A stretch of DNA of 64,000 nucleotides from an uncultured Gammaproteobacteria bacterium. GTDB lineage: Bacteria > Pseudomonadota > Gammaproteobacteria > JAURND01. Shown one piece after another: positions 13,966 through 23,241 of this stretch. A program made the translations under genes and the position numbers. The stretch lies in assembly GCA_963714975.1 (NCBI GenBank), contig CAVQQD010000003.1, forward strand, positions 384,001 through 448,000, read 5' to 3'. The notes beneath the pieces were generated by a model, which ran no database searches, was not told the DNA's origin, and worked only from the letters and a program-made list of their open reading frames with translations. Each line of letters opens with the position of its first letter. Position 1 is the first letter of the stretch.

Positions 13966-14096
13966 AAATTCGCATTCATGACTTGACCGCAAGACAATAC
14001 TGCAAGACAATACTGTAGGTAAAATTACTTGCCTTGAGCAATAAATTCTTGAGTTGTTAGCGATTTAATTTAAAAAATTAAGGAGGTATCAAATTT

Positions 14097-14795
14097 ATGA
14101 TAAATCTCTATTACTGGCCGACGCCAAACGGGCATAAAATTACTATTTTTCTTGAAGAGGCAGGGTTGGCTTACCGTATTATTCCGGTGAATATCGGCCA
14201 GGGAGAACAATTTGCTCCTGAATTTTTACGGCTATCACCTAATAATAAAATGCCGGCTATTGTTGACCCCGAGCCTGCAGTAGGTCAGGAGCCTTTGGCG
14301 ATATTTGAATCAGGCGCCATTTTGCTGTATTTGGCGGACAAAACCGGGCGCTTTTTGCCGCAAGAGCCGCATAATCATTATCAGGCATTGTCCTGGCTGT
14401 TCTGGCAGGTCGCTGGCTTGGGGCCTATGGCAGGACAAAATCATCATTTTGTGCAATATGCACCGGAGAAAATCTCTTATGCGATAGATCGTTATGTCAA
14501 AGAGACGGCGCGTTTATATGCGGTTTTGAATAAGCAATTGCACCATCATGAATATATTGTTGGGGAATATTCGATTGTGGATATGGCTTGTTATCCTTGG
14601 ATTGTACCCTATGAAAAGCAACTACAGCGTTTGGAAGATTTTCCACATTTAAAGCGCTGGTTTGAATTGATGGGGAGTCGGCCAGCCGTACAACGGGCTT
14701 ATGCTCGGGCAGAGGGGTTCGATAGTCAACCGCTGAGTGAACAGGCTAAGTGTATTTTATTCGGTCAGGATGACAGTGTTGTGCATGATGATTAG
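14097..14795 (+). CDS. Glutathione S-transferase, YfcG/nu-class-like
   Basis: WPTPNGHK, SPNNKMPAI and FESGAIL motifs. Confidence 0.9.
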   Translation: MINLYYWPTPNGHKITIFLEEAGLAYRIIPVNIGQGEQFAPEFLRLSPNNKMPAIVDPEPAVGQEPLAIFESGAILLYLADKTGRFLPQEPHNHYQALSWLFWQVAGLGPMAGQNHHFVQYAPEKISYAIDRYVKETARLYAVLNKQLHHHEYIVGEYSIVDMACYPWIVPYEKQLQRLEDFPHLKRWFELMGSRPAVQRAYARAEGFDSQPLSEQAKCILFGQDDSVVHDD

Positions 14796-14812
14796 ATGAA
14801 TGGGAAACTGCC

Positions 14813-15355
14813 ATGTCTAACTTCGATTCTATTTTAGGGCAGCTAGAACCATGGTCGTTATTCGAGCTTTATCGGTTGCATTCTGCTATCGGTAGGCTAT
14901 TAAATAATCCTGCTAGAAATGAGGCTATTAAGCGTCACCTCAAAGTGGGAATGAAAATCAGCTACTTTGATAGCACCACTAATAGCCTGATCGAAGCAAC
15001 TATCGTTGAGATCAGAAAAACTTGGGTTTCTGTAATTAACATCCATAACGGAAAAAGATGGAGAATTCAGTTTTTCCTTATCAATATTCAAGAAGTTGAT
15101 GTCAGCATTGCACCTACGAAAACAGGCGCTAGTTTAGACAGAAATTCATTAAAGGTGGGAGATTTTGTTGGATGGAATTCCAAAGGATTTGATTTGTATG
15201 GGGTCATTGAAAAGCTTAATCCTAAAAAAGCAATGATACAATTAGGAACTGGAGAACGCTGGACGGTTCCTTATTCTTTATTGTTTTTTGTGATGGATGG
15301 TGTCGTTACAAAACAAAATGCTCAGTTATGCATAGAGGGGGAAGTCATTCGTTGA
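14813..15355 (+). CDS. Hypothetical protein with two SH3/KOW-like LKVG modules
   Basis: Open 180-aa ORF with repeated LKVG(M/D) beta-rich segments. Confidence 0.7.
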   Translation: MSNFDSILGQLEPWSLFELYRLHSAIGRLLNNPARNEAIKRHLKVGMKISYFDSTTNSLIEATIVEIRKTWVSVINIHNGKRWRIQFFLINIQEVDVSIAPTKTGASLDRNSLKVGDFVGWNSKGFDLYGVIEKLNPKKAMIQLGTGERWTVPYSLLFFVMDGVVTKQNAQLCIEGEVIR

Positions 15356-15541
15356 TTTGTCCAAAGTCCTATATAGTAGAATTATGATTAATGTCAAAAT
15401 AGCTGGCAATTGCAAAAATGATAGAATCTAAAGTGTGGAAAACTTCTTACATTAAAAATAACGCAAAAAGAGCGCAAGTTTAATGTCATCTGCTTTACCA
15501 CATTCATAAGATCACTCGTTTCGCTTGAGATGCCTGGAAAG

Positions 15542-16144
15542 TTACTTTTCTTCTTCAATTGATCGCTGTATCGCTGGTCGCTGCATCAGTAGATGAAAAT
15601 AAGAATTTATATTGGACCATTTACTGAGTTCTATGTTAAATAGAGGGAGCCATTTAAGAATTACCATCAAGTAGGCATCTGCTAGGGTAAAGCTAGAACC
15701 TGTAATATATCCGCCTTTTTCTAATTGTTGATTAACAAAGTCTAACTTACGTTCTAGAGCGGGTGAAAAAAATTGAGTTTTCAAATCTTGGGGAATTGTT
15801 GGCTGAAAAAGTAAACCGGCAGTTTTATGTAATTCAGTGCTTACATAGTTCAGCCATTCCAACACACGATAGCGCTGAAGCTGTCCTATGCCAGGTAAAA
15901 GGTTAGTTGCCTGATAAGTCTCAGCTAAGTATTGCTGAATAGCGGAATTTTCGGTAAGTACACTCCCGTCATCAAACTGTAAGACAGGAACATAGCCTTT
16001 GGGATTAATAGCCAGAAAATCACTGCCGCTAGCTGTTTTTTTGGCTTTTAAATCTACCGCTTCAAATTCGCAATCAATGCCGATTTCATGGATGATAACT
16101 CGTACCGCAAAAGAGCAAGCACCTTTTGAGTAATACAATTTCAT
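15542..16144 (-). CDS. gstA: Glutathione S-transferase, beta class (GstA-like)
   Basis: MKLYYSKGACS, INPKGYVP and STELHK motifs. Confidence 0.88.
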   Translation of the reverse strand: MKLYYSKGACSFAVRVIIHEIGIDCEFEAVDLKAKKTASGSDFLAINPKGYVPVLQFDDGSVLTENSAIQQYLAETYQATNLLPGIGQLQRYRVLEWLNYVSTELHKTAGLLFQPTIPQDLKTQFFSPALERKLDFVNQQLEKGGYITGSSFTLADAYLMVILKWLPLFNIELSKWSNINSYFHLLMQRPAIQRSIEEEK

Positions 16145-16237
16145 TATAAAAACTCCTTTTAGTTGTAGCTTTACTTGGAAGCCTTAGTCTAACATTGTAA
16201 CAAACAGTTTCAAGGCTTGCATATCGTTAGCAGCAAT

Positions 16238-16400
16238 TGTAAGTCACCACTTGTGTTAAAGTAGTTTCTAAGAGAGAAAAGGCTCCCTCGCAAGAAGAAG
16301 CCTGCGGGCGTGAGCGACCGGGCAGCAATAGGTCATACAGCCGTGAGAATCAAGGTACTCTAGCCCTAACTCTCGATACGTTTGAATAGTTAATTTGGGA
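16238..16400 (+). mobile_element. Orphan IS110 left end carrying a truncated bridge-RNA-like sequence
   Basis: 16231-16400 aligns ungapped to 18648-18817 with 6 mismatches in 170 bp; no transposase follows. Confidence 0.88.
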
Positions 16401-16457
16401 GGCAGATTCAGATACGAAATGCAATTTTTAGTTAAATTTATTAAGAGGGGATTTGCA

Positions 16458-17159
16458 ATGGATATGCCTGTTTGTGTAATTGTAGGAGTTGGGTCTGGCA
16501 ATGGCGCTGCTTTTGCTGATCAATTTTCAAAGGCTGGTTATCACCTCGCTTTGCTTGCACGGCACACTAGCTTTACTGATGAACTTGCAACCCAATTGGG
16601 TAACGCATCTTCTTACGAATGTGATGTAACCAGCGTCTCGTCAATTACCCAAACTTTTCAGCGCATCCAAAAGGAGCAAGGTGAAATTGACGTGCTAATT
16701 TACAATGCCGGTTCTGGCACATGGGGCAATATTGAAGATATTACCGCTCAGCAGTTTGAGGATGCTTGGTCCGTCAATGCAAAAGGCTTGCTCATGGTGA
16801 GTCAGCAAGTAATTCCAAGCATGAAAAAACGTGGCCAGGGAAGCATTGTTGTTATTGGCGCTACAGCTTCAAGACGCGGTGGCATAAAAACTGCGGCATT
16901 TGCACCTGCTAAAGCGGCTCAGCGCAGCCTGACCGAATCCATGGCCAGGCATCTATGGCCCTTAGGAATTCACGTGGCTTTGGTTATTATTGATGGCATC
17001 ATCGATTTACCCAAAACTCGTTCCAATCTTCCCGATAAGCCTGATAGTTTTTTCTTAAAGCCGGCTGATATAGCAGCTACCGTGTATTGGTTAACTCAGC
17101 AGCCCTCATCCGCTTGGAGTTTTGAAGTCGAAGCCAGGCCCTTTGGGGAGGCGTGGTAG
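16458..17159 (+). CDS. Short-chain dehydrogenase/reductase
   Basis: VIVGVGSGNG, YNAG and GATASRRG motifs; GAGGGG RBS before ATG 16458. Confidence 0.9.
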   Translation: MDMPVCVIVGVGSGNGAAFADQFSKAGYHLALLARHTSFTDELATQLGNASSYECDVTSVSSITQTFQRIQKEQGEIDVLIYNAGSGTWGNIEDITAQQFEDAWSVNAKGLLMVSQQVIPSMKKRGQGSIVVIGATASRRGGIKTAAFAPAKAAQRSLTESMARHLWPLGIHVALVIIDGIIDLPKTRSNLPDKPDSFFLKPADIAATVYWLTQQPSSAWSFEVEARPFGEAW

Positions 17160-17179
17160 CTGCTGCTAAATTTTGTTAG

Positions 17180-17403
17180 TTATCTAGAAGATACAGGCGG
17201 CCATCGTCTGACTGTATGCACCAATGCTAATATCCAGATGGTTTGTTGGTTAATTTCATATACTAGGCGATAACTTTCGTGTGGAATTAATTAAGTTCTC
17301 GTGCTAGCTGAGAAGTAGGTCGATCGATAGCTTGAGTTTCGGCGATAAACTCAGCGCGTAAATCAGACTCCAGCTTCATGGTAAAAACGGCTTCTTTCGA
17401 CAT
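17180..17403 (-). pseudogene. Collapsed type II TA module (RHH antitoxin 5' part joined to RelE/ParE toxin 3' part)
   Basis: Reads MSKEAVFTMKLESDLRAEF...LAREL, then after a frameshift LIPHESYRLVYEINQQTIWILALVHTVRRWPP*. Confidence 0.75.
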
Positions 17404-17492
17404 AATCATACCCTTTCTCTATTTTTACATACTAAGTATGACGTTTTCATTACTTCATGCCACAAAATTCCGATAAAATTCATTGCCAAACC

Positions 17493-17579
17493 GTAACCAT
17501 TCACCACAATGTTAATGGCAATATTCCTTCTCCCACAAGGGGAGAAGGAGTTTGCCCAATTATCATGCTGAATGTTTAC
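17493..17579. mobile_element. 87-bp MITE with 8-bp direct repeat GCCAAACC
   Basis: Ends GTAACCATTCA and TGAATGTTTAC; GCCAAACC at 17485-17492 and 17580-17587; internal REP-like hairpin. Confidence 0.72.
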
Positions 17580-17727
17580 GCCAAACCTTACTATTGGCTG
17601 TTGAATATAACCTATGCCGCCTTGTGATGCGGGGGTTCACTAACCAAAGCCGATCAAATTTGCTGGCAGCATTAACGGAGCGCATGGTGGCGAGGTTTGA
17701 ACTATTATAACTATCGAGATACATTGT

Positions 17728-18627
17728 ATGAAATATCTATCATTATTCATAACTGCGATTTTTTTTAACAGTATTACTGCGCTTGCCAATATACCAGTAA
17801 TTAAATTTACACGTGTCCAGAAAAATCTGGAAGCTCTTGAGAAGAGTTTTGACGGAAAAATTGGTGTTTATGCTATTAATACCAATAATAATCAAATTAT
17901 TGCTTATCGGGCTGATGAGCGTTTTCCAGTCCAAAGTACCTCTAAATTAATAGTAGTTGCTGCGTTGTTAAAACAAAGTGACCAAAATAAAAAATTATTA
18001 CAAGAGAAAATCTATTATACAAAAAATGCTTTGATTACTTGGCATCCAGTGACAGGAAAATATATTAATAGTGGCATGACATTTGAAGCATTATCAGAAG
18101 CAGCAGTAAGTTATAGTGATAATACAGCTGCGAATCTTATCATAAAAAAATTAGGTGGGCCGACATTCGTAACTAATTTTGCTCGCTCTATTGGAAATAA
18201 AACATTTAATATCCGGCACTATGAAGGAGATTTAAACTCTAATCCGGAGAATGAAGATGATACTGCTACGCCTAAAGATATGGCAATAGGTATACGGGAA
18301 TTAACATTGGGAAATACATTGTCACCACCTCAACGAACTCAATTACTCACATGGATGAGGAATAATACGACCAGTTACAAACGAATGCGTGCAGGTGTTC
18401 CGATTGGCTGGGTTGTTGCTGATAGAACGGGGTCTGGCGATTATGGCGTCGCCAATGATATTGGCATCTTGTGGTCACCTCTATGTAAACCAATTGTATT
18501 AGCTATTTATACGGTACAAAACCAACCAAAGGCAAAGGGTCGAGATGATATCCTGGCGTCAACAACGACTATCGTACTCGATGAATTGGCAAAAAAAGAC
18601 CAATGCTTTAAAGATTTATTTGCATGA
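17728..18627 (+). CDS. Class A serine beta-lactamase (RTG triad)
   Basis: Signal peptide, STSK, SDN, YEGDLN (E166-like) and DRTGSG. Confidence 0.93.
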   Translation: MKYLSLFITAIFFNSITALANIPVIKFTRVQKNLEALEKSFDGKIGVYAINTNNNQIIAYRADERFPVQSTSKLIVVAALLKQSDQNKKLLQEKIYYTKNALITWHPVTGKYINSGMTFEALSEAAVSYSDNTAANLIIKKLGGPTFVTNFARSIGNKTFNIRHYEGDLNSNPENEDDTATPKDMAIGIRELTLGNTLSPPQRTQLLTWMRNNTTSYKRMRAGVPIGWVVADRTGSGDYGVANDIGILWSPLCKPIVLAIYTVQNQPKAKGRDDILASTTTIVLDELAKKDQCFKDLFA

Positions 18628-18684
18628 TATCTGAAAGGAGTAATCATCAGCAATTGTAAGTCACCACTTGTGTTAAAGTAGTTC

Positions 18685-18850
18685 CTAAGAGAGAAAAGGC
18701 TCCCTCGCAAGAAGGAGCCTGCGGGCGTGAGCGACCGGTCAGCAATAGGTTATACAGCCGTGGGAATCAAGGTACTCTAGCCCTAACTCTCGATACGTTT
18801 GAATAGTTCATTTGGGACTAAAGCTCCCGCTTACAATCGTAAATATCGAG
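18685..18850 (+). ncRNA. Putative IS110 bridge RNA
   Basis: 5' hairpin AGGCTCC/GGAGCCT. Loop 1 holds TCAGCAAT (left flank plus core) and GGGAAT (reverse complement of core plus right flank). Loop 2 holds ATAGTTCAT (8/9 to the right end) and CTTACAAT (reverse complement of core plus left end). Transcript ends are approximate. Confidence 0.82.
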
Positions 18851-18856
18851 GTTACC

Positions 18857-19810
18857 ATGAAATTGTATAGTTCTTTTATCGGTATGGATATAGGGAAATT
18901 TAATTTTGTTGTTGCCTTACATGGAGAAAAGATCACGAAAGAGTATCCAAATAGCGCTGAGGGCATTAAGGATTTTTTAAAAGATTATGAAGAAATTTTA
19001 CCCACAGCATTTTGTGTGGTTGAAACGACAGGGGGTCATGAAAAAATTTTGTTACTGGCCCTGCGTTCTAATAGATATGCAGTCCATCGTGCAGATACTA
19101 GGAAAGTAAAAAACTTTATCCATTCCTATGGTAAAAAGGCAAAAACAGATGCATTAGACGCTAAAGGACTAGCCCATTATAGTTATGAAAGGTATCAGGA
19201 ATTAGATATTTATGAACCTCCTGATGAAACGGATATAGCACTTTTTACATTGGTAATGCGTAAAAATGATTTAACAGAGATGCTGGTTGCTGAAAAAAAT
19301 CGCCTTAAATCGCCTAATAATCATGAAATAGTAGAAATAAGTTGTAAAAAAATGATTACCATGCTCTCGGAAGAAATCAAATTGCTCAATGAGAAAATAA
19401 ATGAGCTGATTGAAGGTGTACCTTATTTAAGGGAAAAAAGGAAAGTTTTAAAGAGCATTCCAGGGATTGGTGATGTGCTGAGCTGTGAATTGATTACTTT
19501 ATTGCCTGAACTAGGAACACTGGATAGGAGAAAAATAGCTGCTTTAGCTGGGTTAGCTCCTCAAGCAAATGAGAGTGGCAAATACAAAGGATACAGGCGC
19601 TGTGGTTATGGTCGTCAAGGAGTGAAGCCAAAATTATTTCTCGCTGCCATGGCGGCAAGGAATTCAAATTCGCATCTAAAAGTCTTTTATGAAAAATTGG
19701 TTGGGTCAGGTAAAAAGAAAATGGTGGCTTTAACCGCTTTAATGAGAAAAATTTTAGTCATCGCCAATGCAAAGGTAAGAGATTTCAATAAAGAATATAA
19801 TTTGGCTTGA
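18857..19810 (+). CDS. IS110-family DEDD recombinase/transposase
   Basis: GMDIGK, VETTGG and KTDALD (DEDD), SIPGIG, catalytic-Ser-like NESGK; GAGG RBS before ATG 18857. Confidence 0.95.
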   Translation: MKLYSSFIGMDIGKFNFVVALHGEKITKEYPNSAEGIKDFLKDYEEILPTAFCVVETTGGHEKILLLALRSNRYAVHRADTRKVKNFIHSYGKKAKTDALDAKGLAHYSYERYQELDIYEPPDETDIALFTLVMRKNDLTEMLVAEKNRLKSPNNHEIVEISCKKMITMLSEEIKLLNEKINELIEGVPYLREKRKVLKSIPGIGDVLSCELITLLPELGTLDRRKIAALAGLAPQANESGKYKGYRRCGYGRQGVKPKLFLAAMAARNSNSHLKVFYEKLVGSGKKKMVALTALMRKILVIANAKVRDFNKEYNLA

Positions 19811-20071
19811 AAGAGCACCAAGGAGGGTGCGGTCAAGCCAAATCGACAAGCCCGCTCTATAGCGGGCGAAAAATCTAGACAATTTTTTAAAAAATTAAGA
19901 TATAAATTCTCGTCCAGTGTTTGTTAAAATAAAGCCACGATACAGCCGGGGACGGCAATGACCGTGACGTGATTCCGGGCAGCTTTTGCCACCCAAGCCA
20001 CTGCCCGGTTATTTAAATCACGTCTTAAATATCCCGGGGTGTGGGGCGGAGCCCCACCTTAATCCGCATCT

Positions 20072-20920
20072 TTAATGCACCAATTTTGAATGTACCCTGT
20101 TAGGTGTGAGCCCATTTAAACTTTGATGGGGTCTTTCAAAATTATAAAACTGAAAGTACTCGTCCAATCCTTCCCGCGCAGTCGTAACGTTTTCCCACTC
20201 CTGCAGGTACACACATTCATATTTTACCGATCGCCATAGGCGCTCAACAAAAATATTATCTGCCCATCGTCCCTTTCCATCCATGCTGATTTTGATTTGA
20301 TGCGCGGCGAGCACATCAGTAAAATCTTTGCTTGTAAATTGCGCTCCCTGATCAGTATTAAATATATCGCAGCGTGAATGCGCTAATACCCGCTTAAGTG
20401 TTTCTACACAAAAATCAGCCTCCATAGTGATGCTAAGCTGCCAATCCAATACAAAACGGCTATACCAGTCTATTATGGCCATCAAGTAAACGAAACCTCG
20501 TCGTAGCCTAATATACGTGATATCTGTACTGAAAACTTGGCAAGGCCTGACTATTGCAACGTCATTCAGTAAGTACGGATATACTTTATGTTCAGGATGC
20601 GGCTTACTGGTATGAGGGCCCGGCGCCAATGAGTGCAATCCTAAATGCTCATAAGCCCAACGTGTCTCATGGCGTTTACAAGGGTAATGGTGATAAGAAA
20701 TGTAGTCACTCATTTGCCTTGTACCGAAAGCTGGATGCTTTGTGTAAATTTCATCCACTAAGCGCAGTAATGCTAGCTGTTTATCACTTAATACCTTGGG
20801 ACGTGGCACGTAATATACATTGGAACGGGTTAAATCCAGTAGATCACATTGTCGACAGACTGACAACAATGGGTGTTCTCTCTCAACCCAACCTCGCCTT
20901 TCATCCACGGAACAACTCAA
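20072..20920 (-). CDS. IS3 transposase OrfB (integrase core), probably expressed by -1 frameshift
   Basis: STDITYI, NTDQGAQF and ERLWRSVKYE DDE motifs; A9G slippery run on the minus strand at 20922-20931. Confidence 0.93.
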   Translation of the reverse strand: MSCSVDERRGWVEREHPLLSVCRQCDLLDLTRSNVYYVPRPKVLSDKQLALLRLVDEIYTKHPAFGTRQMSDYISYHHYPCKRHETRWAYEHLGLHSLAPGPHTSKPHPEHKVYPYLLNDVAIVRPCQVFSTDITYIRLRRGFVYLMAIIDWYSRFVLDWQLSITMEADFCVETLKRVLAHSRCDIFNTDQGAQFTSKDFTDVLAAHQIKISMDGKGRWADNIFVERLWRSVKYECVYLQEWENVTTAREGLDEYFQFYNFERPHQSLNGLTPNRVHSKLVH

Positions 20921-21194
20921 ACTTTTTTTTTAAAAAATCATTCTCTACTTTTAAACGACCAATTTGTTCATATAATTCAGCCAGTTGAGTAGCATGTTCC
21001 GTAATTTCATTTTTATTTTTATCACTAAAAACATCGGGCAACAAGGCTAAGGCTTGTTTTTTCCATGCGTTTATTTGCGTTCCATGGGCACCATACTTCG
21101 AGCTAATTTGTGCCAATGTTAGCTCCCCTTTAATAGCTTCCAAAGCAATTTTTGCTTTTTCTGCTGGAGTATATGTTTTACGTTTTTGGCTCAT
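20901..21194 (-). CDS. IS3 transposase OrfA (HTH)
   Basis: KAKIALEAIKG...WKK...LYEQIGRLKVENDFLKKK. Confidence 0.92.
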   Translation of the reverse strand: MSQKRKTYTPAEKAKIALEAIKGELTLAQISSKYGAHGTQINAWKKQALALLPDVFSDKNKNEITEHATQLAELYEQIGRLKVENDFLKKKFELFRG

Positions 21195-21507
21195 TCTCGT
21201 CTCCTGATCCGAAGCGAGAATTATATCTTAGCTTGCCATTTTAACTGTCTGAATTTCTTCGCCCACTATACTCAGCGGGCGCGTCAGTAGGGAGAAACCC
21301 TAGTTTAGGCTGGGGTTTATAGACTTGTATGCTTAAAAATTTTATTTTTTTAAAATTTTTAAGACATAGTTGATTCCCGGTGAATTAAAATCGCCTTAAT
21401 TTTCGTACAGTTAGCGAGACTGTGAAATAAATTTTTCGTACAATGTGGGCATTATTTCTTGAATGGTATTCCATCCCCTCGGTTTTATAAGGAAATGGCA
21501 CAGCCAT

Positions 21508-21619
21508 TTGACCGACGGGTGACGCGCAGGCGGGGACCCCAACGCGCGCAGGAACGAGCACGGTGGGGTGCCGCAGCGGCAGGACCCGTCGTGGATCAGG
21601 GCATCAGCGGGAATTGCTG
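21508..21619. repeat. Structured GC-rich repeat, copy A
   Basis: CGACGGGTGACGC...CGCGCAG..CGAGCACG...GCGGCAGGACCCGTCG core shared with 56227 and 57865; ends AGCGGGAATTGCTG. Confidence 0.8.
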
Positions 21620-21801
21620 GAGTAATCATCCTTTTTCTGGATTATTGTCTTCTTTACGTATATAATGCTGGTTTTTAATTATTTCAACATGAGGTTTTGC
21701 ATATCATGAACATGACTACTTAAAGTTGCCCGTCAAGGGCCAAAGAGCGCGCTATTTACGCTCTGTTTTGAGAATCGCCCTTCACTTTAAGAGAGTCACT
21801 T

Positions 21802-23241
21802 ATGCATAAGCCCATTCAAATTGAACAGCTAAGTTTATCCTTCCCTAACAAGACCTGCTTTGAAGCATTTAACGCTGAAATTCATCATGGCAGCCGCATT
21901 GCCATTATTGGTCGCAATGGCTGTGGAAAAACGAGTTTACTGAATATATTGCGTGGCTTAGCAGAACCGACTATGGGTCGTATTATCATGCCTGCCGACG
22001 CAATAATTGGTTTTGTGCCACAGGTAATTAACGACTTTGTTGATCACAGTGGTGGTGAGCGGCTCAATTGTGCTTTGACCCAAGCCTTAAGTCTTCAGCC
22101 CAATATTTTATTGCTGGATGAACCCACTAATCACCTCGATGAGCGGAATCGCCGCCATGTGTTGCGTTGGCTGGAGCATTTTTCCGGCACATTGCTGGTC
22201 GTTTCACATGATGTGGTTCTGCTGCGTCAGTTGGTGAATACGTTTTGGCATATCGATCAAAGCCGTATTCAGATTTTTACTGGTGGTTTTGATGATTATC
22301 AACAAGCCCGAAACATTCAGCGGGTGCAATTGGAAATATCGTTACAGAATCTAAAACGCGAACGAAATGACCTGCATCAATCACTCATGCAAGAACAACA
22401 GCGTGCAGCCAAAAGCAAGACCAAGGGTGCAAAAAATATTGATCAAAGAAAATGGCCAACGGTAGTGAGTCATGCGAAGGCCAGTCGATCTCAAGAAACT
22501 AGTGGGCGGAAAAAAGCTGCGCTTGCTAGTAAAAACCAAGCGGTATTGGCAGAATTGGCTGAGTTGCATATCCCTGAAGTCATTGTTCCTAAATTTCATT
22601 TGTCTTACCAAAAAAATAATCATACGGTATTATCCATTAGTCAGGGGTCAGTAGGCTATGCTGAAAATAAATGGATATTGCAAAATATTCATTTATCGAT
22701 AATGGCTGGAAACCGTGTTGCACTGCTTGGTGATAACGGTTCAGGGAAATCCAGCTTATTTAAGGCTATTTTAGCAGCTGAAGATGTGATTCGTTCTGGG
22801 GAATGGTTCTTGCCTAGGCAACATGCCATGGGCTATTTAGATCAGCATTATCAAACGCTTTGTCCTACAGACACGGTATTAACATCCATCAGTCGCTTGA
22901 TGCCAAACTGTTCTCACGTGGAAATTCGTTATCATTTAAGTGATTTTTTATTTCGCAGTCAAGAGACAGTTAATACGCCGATTGCACAACTGTCCGGCGG
23001 TGAAAAAGCGCGTTTATCGTTGGCGCATATTGCCGCACAAACACCGGAGCTGTTATTGCTGGATGAAGTGACTAATAATTTGGATCTAGAAACTCGTCAA
23101 CATGTAATTGAAGTATTGAAAGATTATCCAGGCAGTTTGTTGGTGATTTCACATGATCAAGAGTTTTTGCGTGCGATTGCAATCCAAGATTATTATGAGA
23201 TCACTGAGGGTAGTCTGCATTTGCAATTACCATTGAGCTAA
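21802..23241 (+). CDS. ABC-F family ATPase (possible ribosome protection protein)
   Basis: Two ABC domains (GRNGCGKT, LDEPTNHLD; GDNGSGKS, LSGGE, LDEVTNNLD), long linker, no TM segments. Confidence 0.9.
   Translation: MHKPIQIEQLSLSFPNKTCFEAFNAEIHHGSRIAIIGRNGCGKTSLLNILRGLAEPTMGRIIMPADAIIGFVPQVINDFVDHSGGERLNCALTQALSLQPNILLLDEPTNHLDERNRRHVLRWLEHFSGTLLVVSHDVVLLRQLVNTFWHIDQSRIQIFTGGFDDYQQARNIQRVQLEISLQNLKRERNDLHQSLMQEQQRAAKSKTKGAKNIDQRKWPTVVSHAKASRSQETSGRKKAALASKNQAVLAELAELHIPEVIVPKFHLSYQKNNHTVLSISQGSVGYAENKWILQNIHLSIMAGNRVALLGDNGSGKSSLFKAILAAEDVIRSGEWFLPRQHAMGYLDQHYQTLCPTDTVLTSISRLMPNCSHVEIRYHLSDFLFRSQETVNTPIAQLSGGEKARLSLAHIAAQTPELLLLDEVTNNLDLETRQHVIEVLKDYPGSLLVISHDQEFLRAIAIQDYYEITEGSLHLQLPLS

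Follow-up and report, generated by a model that had tools for sequence, protein, structure and literature searches.

A solo left end of a diverged IS110-group allele keeps its target-binding loop and is most likely an inert relic

The study of IS110-family elements that are guided by a bridge RNA offers a frame in which even small fragments of such elements can be read. In IS621 of E. coli, as far as the accessible text of the two main reports goes (PMC11208160; PMC11208158), the left end encodes the bridge RNA, with a DEDD/Ser recombinase downstream of it, and this RNA is made of a 5' stem-loop, a target-binding loop (left target guide or LTG, hairpin, right target guide or RTG, and handshake) and a donor-binding loop (left donor guide or LDG, hairpin and RDG). 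In the same accounts the target is REP-like, the -35 and -10 parts of the promoter are split across the junction of the excised circle, and position 7 of the LD tolerates mismatches. These features, with a putative split promoter among them, recur in the element that we have studied in a stretch of 64,000 nucleotides (the window; positions 384,001 to 448,000 of contig CAVQQD010000003.1, assembly GCA_963714975.1) from an uncultured Gammaproteobacteria bacterium. There are also clear differences, since the core is CT in IS621 and AT here, the target here is xCAGCA-AT-TCCC, and the similarity between the proteins is distant. The subject of this study, a solo left end that we call the stub, departs further from IS621: it consists of the first 163 nt alone and has neither the 3' half of the donor loop nor a recombinase. 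What could still be encoded by it is a target-loop-only RNA, a module for which the separate TBL and DBL RNAs used in vitro with IS621 (portions of PMC11208158) are the closest parallel, engineered there and natural here.

Two other described situations resemble this locus. ISPpu9 and ISPpu10 of Pseudomonas putida, according to the accessible parts of two reports (PMC12288879; 10.64898/2026.03.19.712850), belong to the IS110 family, insert into REP sequences, form promoters at the circle junction and have unlinked non-coding modules elsewhere, namely orphan copies of ssr9. Unlike the stub, ssr9 is described in those parts as a small RNA in its own right that has recombination boxes of its own, and not as a truncated bridge RNA. 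Expanded IS110 loci that hold partial modules and carry resistance genes have also been described, in what is accessible of 10.64898/2026.08.14.744561, and here too a partial module lies beside a full copy in the same orientation, with cargo, a beta-lactamase gene among it, between them and donor half-sites at the outer boundaries. The distinction is that the partial module here is a diverged allele, and that mobilisation as a unit is not seen here. In the literature on orphan or remnant IS110 bridge RNAs, in so far as its text was accessible, there is no description of a natural target-loop-only bridge RNA.

The genome (three contigs, C1 to C3, 2.56 Mb) holds four near-identical full copies of the element, at C3:402648 (the copy in the window), C3:520417, C3:459650 and C2:68578, which differ from each other at 0, 0 and 1 of 170 left-end nucleotides (at most 0.6%). 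From the three copies that are uninterrupted, the ends can be placed at xCAGCAAT/TGTAAGT...ACATAGTTGAT/TCCCGCT (a slash marks the boundary of the element), which gives a length of 1304 bp. In the window, the left target flank and core of the resident copy, TCAGCAAT, occupy 18647..18654 (+), and the complete bridge-RNA region, with 5' stem-loop, target loop and donor loop including the RDG CTTACAAT, occupies 18655..18856 (+). The gene directly 3' of it, at 18857..19810 (+), encodes an IS110-family RNA-guided recombinase of 317 aa, which carries Pfam domains PF01548 and PF02371, passes the NCBIfam model NF033542 'IS110 family RNA-guided transposase' (160.7 bits, cut-off 140) and matches the bridge recombinases in the PDB (ISCro4 9t56, E 9e-32; IS621 8wt6, E 5e-29). 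What remains of the resident right end, 104 nt that close the element, lies at 21271..21374 (+) and finishes in ACATAGTTGAT, that is, the left donor and core, followed by the right target TCCC at 21375-21378. A search of genome contigs with the recombinase returned just two distant actinobacterial matches, and a search of nine genomes at the level of the order with the RNA model returned weak matches only (G003 and G002).

Rfam 15 gave no match in 14000-22000 at E values up to 1, a null that may reflect the lack of a bridge-RNA family in Rfam, and the bridge-RNA model was therefore tested on relatives of the element. When 400 genomes of the class were searched at the protein level, elements with 47-57% identity were found, in multiple copies in G054, G166 and G205 and in a single copy in G294, and their ends were placed by comparing copies. 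Together with the window element, all five start with AT/TGTAAGT and finish in GTTGAT. In all five, the left flank and the AT core recur in the 5' strand of the first internal loop, and the 3' strand is in each of them the reverse complement of AT plus four nucleotides of the right flank. The window element thus combines LTG TCAGCAAT and RTG GGGAAT with the target TCAGCAAT^TCCC; in G054 the LTG AGCTAT and the RTG TAGAAT correspond to AGCTAT^TCTAA, with 1-nt departures in individual copies; in G166 CTCGCAAT and CGTCAT correspond to CTCGCAAT^GACGG; in G205 GCAATCAT and GTTAAT correspond to CAATCAT^TAAT (with one G·T, at the distal RTG position); and in G294 ACGACAT and ATAGAT correspond to ACGACAT^CTAT. 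As the same loop positions spell the element's own insertion site in five out of five related IS families, the guide coordinates that the preliminary description gave for the stub are correct.

Other parts of the model are equally well conserved. Every one of the 65 cells of the target-loop stems is paired, 7 of the 13 pairs show compensatory changes, and none of 500 shuffles scored as high. The second loop carries in all five elements an LDG that begins ATAGTTG and the RDG CTTACAAT, the reverse complement of AT+TGTAAG; the resident LDG ATAGTTCAT reads against the right end ATAGTTGAT. Position 7 of the LDG does not pair with the donor, which has G, in either of the alleles found in this genome (C in the resident, A in the stub) and is G in the four orthologues; in IS621 the corresponding LD position is reported to be mismatch-tolerant (parts of PMC11208160). 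The CA that follows the RTG complements donor positions 6-7 (TG), also at the resident right end, in keeping with the handshake rule stated for IS621 in the accessible text of PMC11208158, by which the dinucleotide next to the RTG pairs with the donor. Read from the sequence, a junction of right and left ends would bring together TTGATT, a spacer of 17-18 nt and TAnnnT after TGn, both in the window element and in the four orthologues, a putative promoter that agrees with the one at the circle junction of IS621 (PMC11208158). Among the genomes that bear orthologues, 20 of 23 matches to the model adjoin a recombinase with at least 283 aligned residues. The recombinase is truncated at L138 and L159 and lies about 1.3 kb away at L153 (G054:C4:189030-192119), and the match at L141 is close to a contig end with no recombinase seen. 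An RNAalifold prediction pairs the leader stretch AAGAGAG (18687-18693) with CUCUC (18789-18793) in the 5' strand of the donor-loop outer stem; the same columns can pair in four orthologues, with compensatory changes in three of five pairs. This could be an alternative or switch helix; as the stub has lost the 3' strand that competes with it, the helix would there close the target-loop module.

By repeat search and pairwise alignment, the stub (16231-16400) is an ungapped 170-nt match to 18648-18817 with six substitutions (96.5% identity), at 16267, 16298, 16322, 16334, 16346 and 16392. The homology begins with CAGCAAT and ends in TTTGGGA/GGCAG, four bases into the inner hairpin of the donor-binding loop. 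The ungapped copy, its lack of a recombinase and its cut within the donor loop are all as first described. The CAGCAAT that the stub shares with all resident copies is explained by its being the left half of the target. The left target flank and AT core of the stub, GCAGCAAT, are at 16230..16237 (+), and the element itself, the first 163 nt of a variant allele of the IS110-group element, runs from 16238 to 16400 (+). It has kept the leader, the 5' stem-loop (16281..16302, +; one pair broken by G>A at 16298), the whole target-binding loop (16306..16366, +; LTG 16322-16329, hairpin 16331-16344, RTG 16345-16350), its handshake dinucleotide CA (16351-16352, +), and the 5' half alone of the donor-binding loop (16372..16400, +), that is, the 5' strand of the outer stem, the LDG (16386-16394) and the first 4 nt of the inner hairpin. 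The target loop is intact, as had been claimed, with 13 of 13 stem pairs and a score of 98.0 bits against the covariance model, compared to 98.7-99.7 for the resident copies. This model finds five matches in the genome, the four resident copies and the stub, and thus no second diverged stub. The 3' half of the donor-loop hairpin, the RDG, the 3' strand of the outer stem, the recombinase and the right end are missing, and because of these losses the stub cannot move or guide donor recognition alone. No other pieces of the element were found near it, and the next ORF, where the resident copy has its recombinase, encodes an SDR oxidoreductase. Both in the stub (16280-16303) and in the resident copy (18697-18720), the minus-strand reading of the 5' stem-loop with TTTCTCTCTT after it has the score of an intrinsic-terminator-like site. 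A deletion made by the recombinase was considered as the origin of the truncation and rejected, since the junction GGGA/GGCAG has no AT-type core and evidence for it is lacking.

Three of the six substitutions fall in predicted guides, at the positions originally noted. The LTG (16322-16329) reads GCAGCAAT in the stub and TCAGCAAT in the residents (U>G at position -8), the RTG (16345-16350) reads GAGAAT and GGGAAT, respectively (G>A at position +3), and the LDG (16386-16394) reads ATAGTTAAT and ATAGTTCAT (C>A at position 7). With about 21-26 guide nucleotides among the 170, the binomial P is 0.03-0.05, and this concentration of substitutions in guides is suggestive, not strong.

The single change in the RTG bears directly on the sites that each allele is predicted to recognize. 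A REP-like repeat ends in the target CAGCAAT^TCCC, and the unoccupied sites of the genome comprise 36 of CAGCAATTCCC and 10 of CAGCAATTCTC. All four resident copies are in xCAGCAAT^TCCC and none in TCTC sites. The 12-mer predicted from the stub guides, GCAGCAATTCTC, has two intact copies in the genome, against 0.3 expected by chance, and both belong to one repeat subfamily (...aaaaaGCAGCAATTCTCgctgctccgtcat). A third member of this subfamily (C2:41382-41409) carries a clean 17-nt insertion at 41389-41405, exactly between GCAGCAAT and TCTC, which is identical to left-end positions 1-17, has TGT at both its ends and is missing from three paralogous repeats. To judge from this footprint, an element of this IS family has at least once inserted at the predicted site, though at another locus. 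The earlier prediction of an ATTCTC target thus holds in that GCAGCAATTCTC exists and that one member of the subfamily is footprinted; it cannot be extended to the stub's own insertion site, as the footprint is at another locus and the right flank of the stub is lost. Moreover, the 17 nt are the same in both alleles and the resident RTG could wobble (G·T), so that the footprint is not proof of the variant. The 'AG' that precedes CAGCAAT at both the stub and the footprint locus is a weak likeness (1 in 16). We also considered that the stub and the footprint at C2:41389 were reciprocal products of one event, and rejected this because both hold left-end positions 1-17.

Two further sites of the TCTC type have extra bases exactly at the crossover, TCAGCAAT(TGT)TCTC at C3:263421 (+) and GCAGCAAT(T)TCTC at C1:158061 (-); these may be shorter footprints or plain repeat variation, and the same scan found no such extra bases at TCCC-type repeat sites. 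Composite repeat units also occur, for example at C3:55285-55337 and C2:41330-41382, in which TCAGCAATT(C/T)CC is followed about 52 nt further on by GCAGCAATTCTC. As both target types are then found in one repeat unit, two IS alleles would partition neighbouring sites. With one base of the RTG changed (G>A), the two alleles are thus predicted to target two different subfamilies of one repeat, and this genome is a compact natural example of drifting bridge-RNA specificity, in which the footprint marks past use of the second site.

Where the stub came from can be addressed by its divergence, its boundary and its alleles. It differs from every resident copy, its neighbour included, at the same 6 of 170 positions (3.5%), compared to at most 0.6% among the residents. 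Its homology starts where the element meets the target, and the upstream flanks of the stub and of its neighbour are unrelated. When contigs of three soil-metagenome runs were aligned to 15900-16900, one of them (X2, a single contig of 187 nt with a depth of about 2) covered 16284-16400 with three differences, at 16321, at 16322 and at a third, unlisted position, presumably near the contig end. X2 carries the stub alleles at 16334 (C), 16346 (A, in the RTG) and 16392 (A, in the LDG), and it runs past 16400 with a resident-type, intact donor-loop sequence. Since three stub alleles are found in an untruncated bridge RNA, they are not the result of post-mortem decay; X2 has T rather than G at 16322 and is therefore a third allele. 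By these comparisons, and with the two intact copies of GCAGCAATTCTC and the footprint in a third member of their subfamily as a further argument, the stub is a diverged allele of the resident IS110-group element and not a copy of its neighbour. The contrary explanation, a local partial duplication of the neighbour's left end followed by drift, was already disfavoured, and we consider it highly improbable. It would account for two similar sequences only 2.4 kb apart in the same orientation, and a tandem build-up of partial IS110 modules has been described (accessible portions of 10.64898/2026.08.14.744561). Against it, the neighbour is identical to two other residents over the 170 nt whereas the stub differs from all of them at six sites, the homology begins exactly at the target/element boundary between unrelated flanks, and an independent bridge RNA from a metagenome has three of the same alleles as the stub. 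The sister-allele reading has its own weak point in X2, which is a single 187-nt contig at a depth of about 2 with T at 16322. The claim of an independent insertion of a retargeted variant is thus upheld in part, for the diverged allele, the exact boundary and the X2 alleles, but draws little from the flank. It had been proposed that the left target guide covaries with the flank, the full element having TCAGCAAT in both places. The guide is indeed TCAGCAAT in the four resident copies, but the flank is so in just two: at position -8, where all four guides have U, the flanks have T, T, C and A, and this position is mismatched in two of the four orthologues as well. Tabulated in this way over the genomic copies, the covariation is weak, and since the resident flanks vary at -8, the G/G match of the stub says little. 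For the stub only the left half of its own site can be read, the right flank being lost, and there guide and site agree at 8 of 8 positions; the distinctive part of this match is one base at the guide edge and is weak evidence. The left flank of the stub is not repeat DNA and its right flank is deleted. An empty site between the GST and SDR genes was searched for in 30 relatives, none of the same genus, and was not found (SDR or GST matches had 64-70% DNA identity and were never adjacent), and the best match in a metagenome search with the GST protein had 51% identity.

Based on these results, the explanation that we favour, and consider most likely though far from certain, is that the stub is the solo left end of a sister allele of an IS110-group (IS621-like) element, which arrived by guided insertion, was cut back by deletion and is now inert. 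The sister allele's right target guide would have read ATTCTC, where the resident's reads ATTCCC, and this would have tuned it to the TCTC subfamily of the same REP-like repeat. Recombination guided by the bridge RNA would have inserted it at a site outside the repeats that has GCAGCAAT, and an ordinary deletion would then have removed everything beyond left-end position 163 together with the right flank. Any transcript of the stub would be a low-level RNA that comprises the 5' stem-loop plus the target loop and continues into the SDR gene. What promoter remains is an extended -10 of the bridge-RNA promoter (TGT+TAAAGT, read from sequence, 16254..16262, +). The stub has the -10 half alone of the promoter predicted at the joined ends: its -35 slot holds GCAATT, TTGATT arising in the circular RE-LE junction alone, and the integrated resident copies likewise have a -10 without a -35. 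Because the strong promoter would exist just in the excised circle, the integrated state is predicted to keep only the weak extended -10; for integrated IS621, the accessible text of PMC13626964 reports that the bridge RNA is weakly expressed. Several points weigh against this explanation or limit it. The stub lies 2417 bp from the resident copy in the same orientation, a spacing that an unrelated site would give with P ~0.008, so that the two are likely to be linked in some way, be it by a region that tolerates IS elements, by local insertion or as a composite element. The flank match at -8 is uninformative, and the 17-nt footprint cannot be ascribed to the variant allele. Finally, the target loop is fully intact at 98.0 bits, and for that reason inertness is graded as no more than most likely.

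A promoter role, raised in the preliminary description, would have the extended -10 and a structured leader of 190 nt now drive or regulate the SDR gene, which would be compatible with a relic. The gene for this SDR-family oxidoreductase (16458..17159, +) starts 58 nt downstream of the stub on the same strand, a consensus scan, which is insensitive, gave no + strand promoter in 16100-16520 at its threshold, and the upstream GST gene is divergent, so that there is no read-through from that side. The -10 agrees at just 4 of 6 positions and lacks a -35, and the SDR homologues in G002 and G006 share no upstream sequence; such a role is accordingly judged unlikely. The divergent GST gene has a promoter-like site of its own (TTGAAA, 16 nt, TAGACT with TG; 16186-16213, minus strand), 18 bp from the left edge of the stub. 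Still less probable, to the point of being very unlikely, is action in trans, by which the stub would supply a target-loop-only RNA, the resident recombinase and donor loops would do the rest, and circles would also be sent to GCAGCAAT^TCTC. By analogy this would be mechanistically possible, since IS621 recombines in vitro when TBL and DBL are given as separate RNAs, and since in IS621 two RNA molecules presumably provide the two loops of a synaptic complex (both in the accessible portions of PMC11208158). The intact target loop, the handshake CA that still complements TG at donor positions 6-7 of the resident right end, the left-end footprint in exactly the site that the stub guides specify, and the extended -10 would all suit it. 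On the other side, no resident copy (0/4) is in a TCTC site, the -35 is absent and no + strand promoter reached the scan threshold, neither a terminator nor a defined 3' end can be seen, one pair of the 5' stem-loop is broken, and there is no sign of purifying selection, given that six hits would spare the 26 stem nucleotides by chance with P ~0.37. The footprint is explained equally well by an extinct variant acting in cis. If, against these odds, a recombinase-less module of an extinct sister allele were still transcribed, it would give the IS lineage a second specificity, GCAGCAAT^TCTC, while the IS's own guide stayed unchanged; dead IS110 fragments could then reprogram living copies, and the stub could, in addition, serve as an outer end for the segment with the SDR and beta-lactamase genes. 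That segment is the basis of another explanation, also unlikely, in which the stub would be the outer boundary of a 5.1-kb IS110 unit that could be excised as one circle by the resident recombinase and bridge RNA. It extends between the LT/RD junction (16230-16243) and the LD/RT junction (21366-21378) and holds, besides the resident IS, the SDR gene, what remains of a RelE/RHH toxin-antitoxin system, and a class A beta-lactamase. Both outer donor half-sites are present, intact and in the right orientation (AT/TGTAAG at 16236-16243, and ATAGTTGAT directly before the boundary at 21366-21374), the spacing of the two copies is far below chance (P ~0.008), the toxin-antitoxin remnant is plasmid-like, and expanded IS110 loci that contain partial modules, are bounded by half-matches and are enriched in resistance genes are reported in what is accessible of 10.64898/2026.08.14.744561. 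Yet 16401-17492 is single-copy in the genome, at least 80% of the segment is covered in none of 52 matching plasmid records (PLSDB), so that movement as one unit is seen neither in a second genome copy nor in a plasmid record, the base composition is not clearly foreign, and insertion at the end of a repeat, with a paralogue at C3:113380, is a simple explanation of the resident copy. Were the stub such a boundary, it would offer a concrete route for a beta-lactamase gene to become IS110 cargo. Our verdict, however, is for the diverged, truncated and most likely inert allele: the stub is an ordinary relic with a micro-evolutionary story, and fragments of IS110 elements, even where their guide loops look intact, are ordinary scars that should not be over-read.

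The genes between the stub and the resident copy deserve a brief description. The class A beta-lactamase gene (17728..18627, +) passed the generic model NF033103 (295 bits vs 200), and no named family model passed. Between it and the SDR gene, on the minus strand at about 17196-17470, are an RHH-type antitoxin ORF (about 40 aa) and then a RelE/StbE-like frame broken by stops; stretches of 70-78 nt in this remnant are 80-86% identical to plasmid toxin-antitoxin genes. The resident copy of the window is itself split, in its right-end hairpin after the recombinase gene, by an IS3-family element of 1413 bp (19858..21270, -) flanked by a 3-bp duplication, CTC, at 19855-19857 and 21271-21273. The genome has two further copies of this element, at C1:259849 and C2:414109. 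The element ends in TATAGCGGGCG, which is similar to the AGCGGGCG arm of the hairpin in the IS110 right end where it is inserted, and so it seems, by this likeness, to have landed in sequence that looks like its own end.
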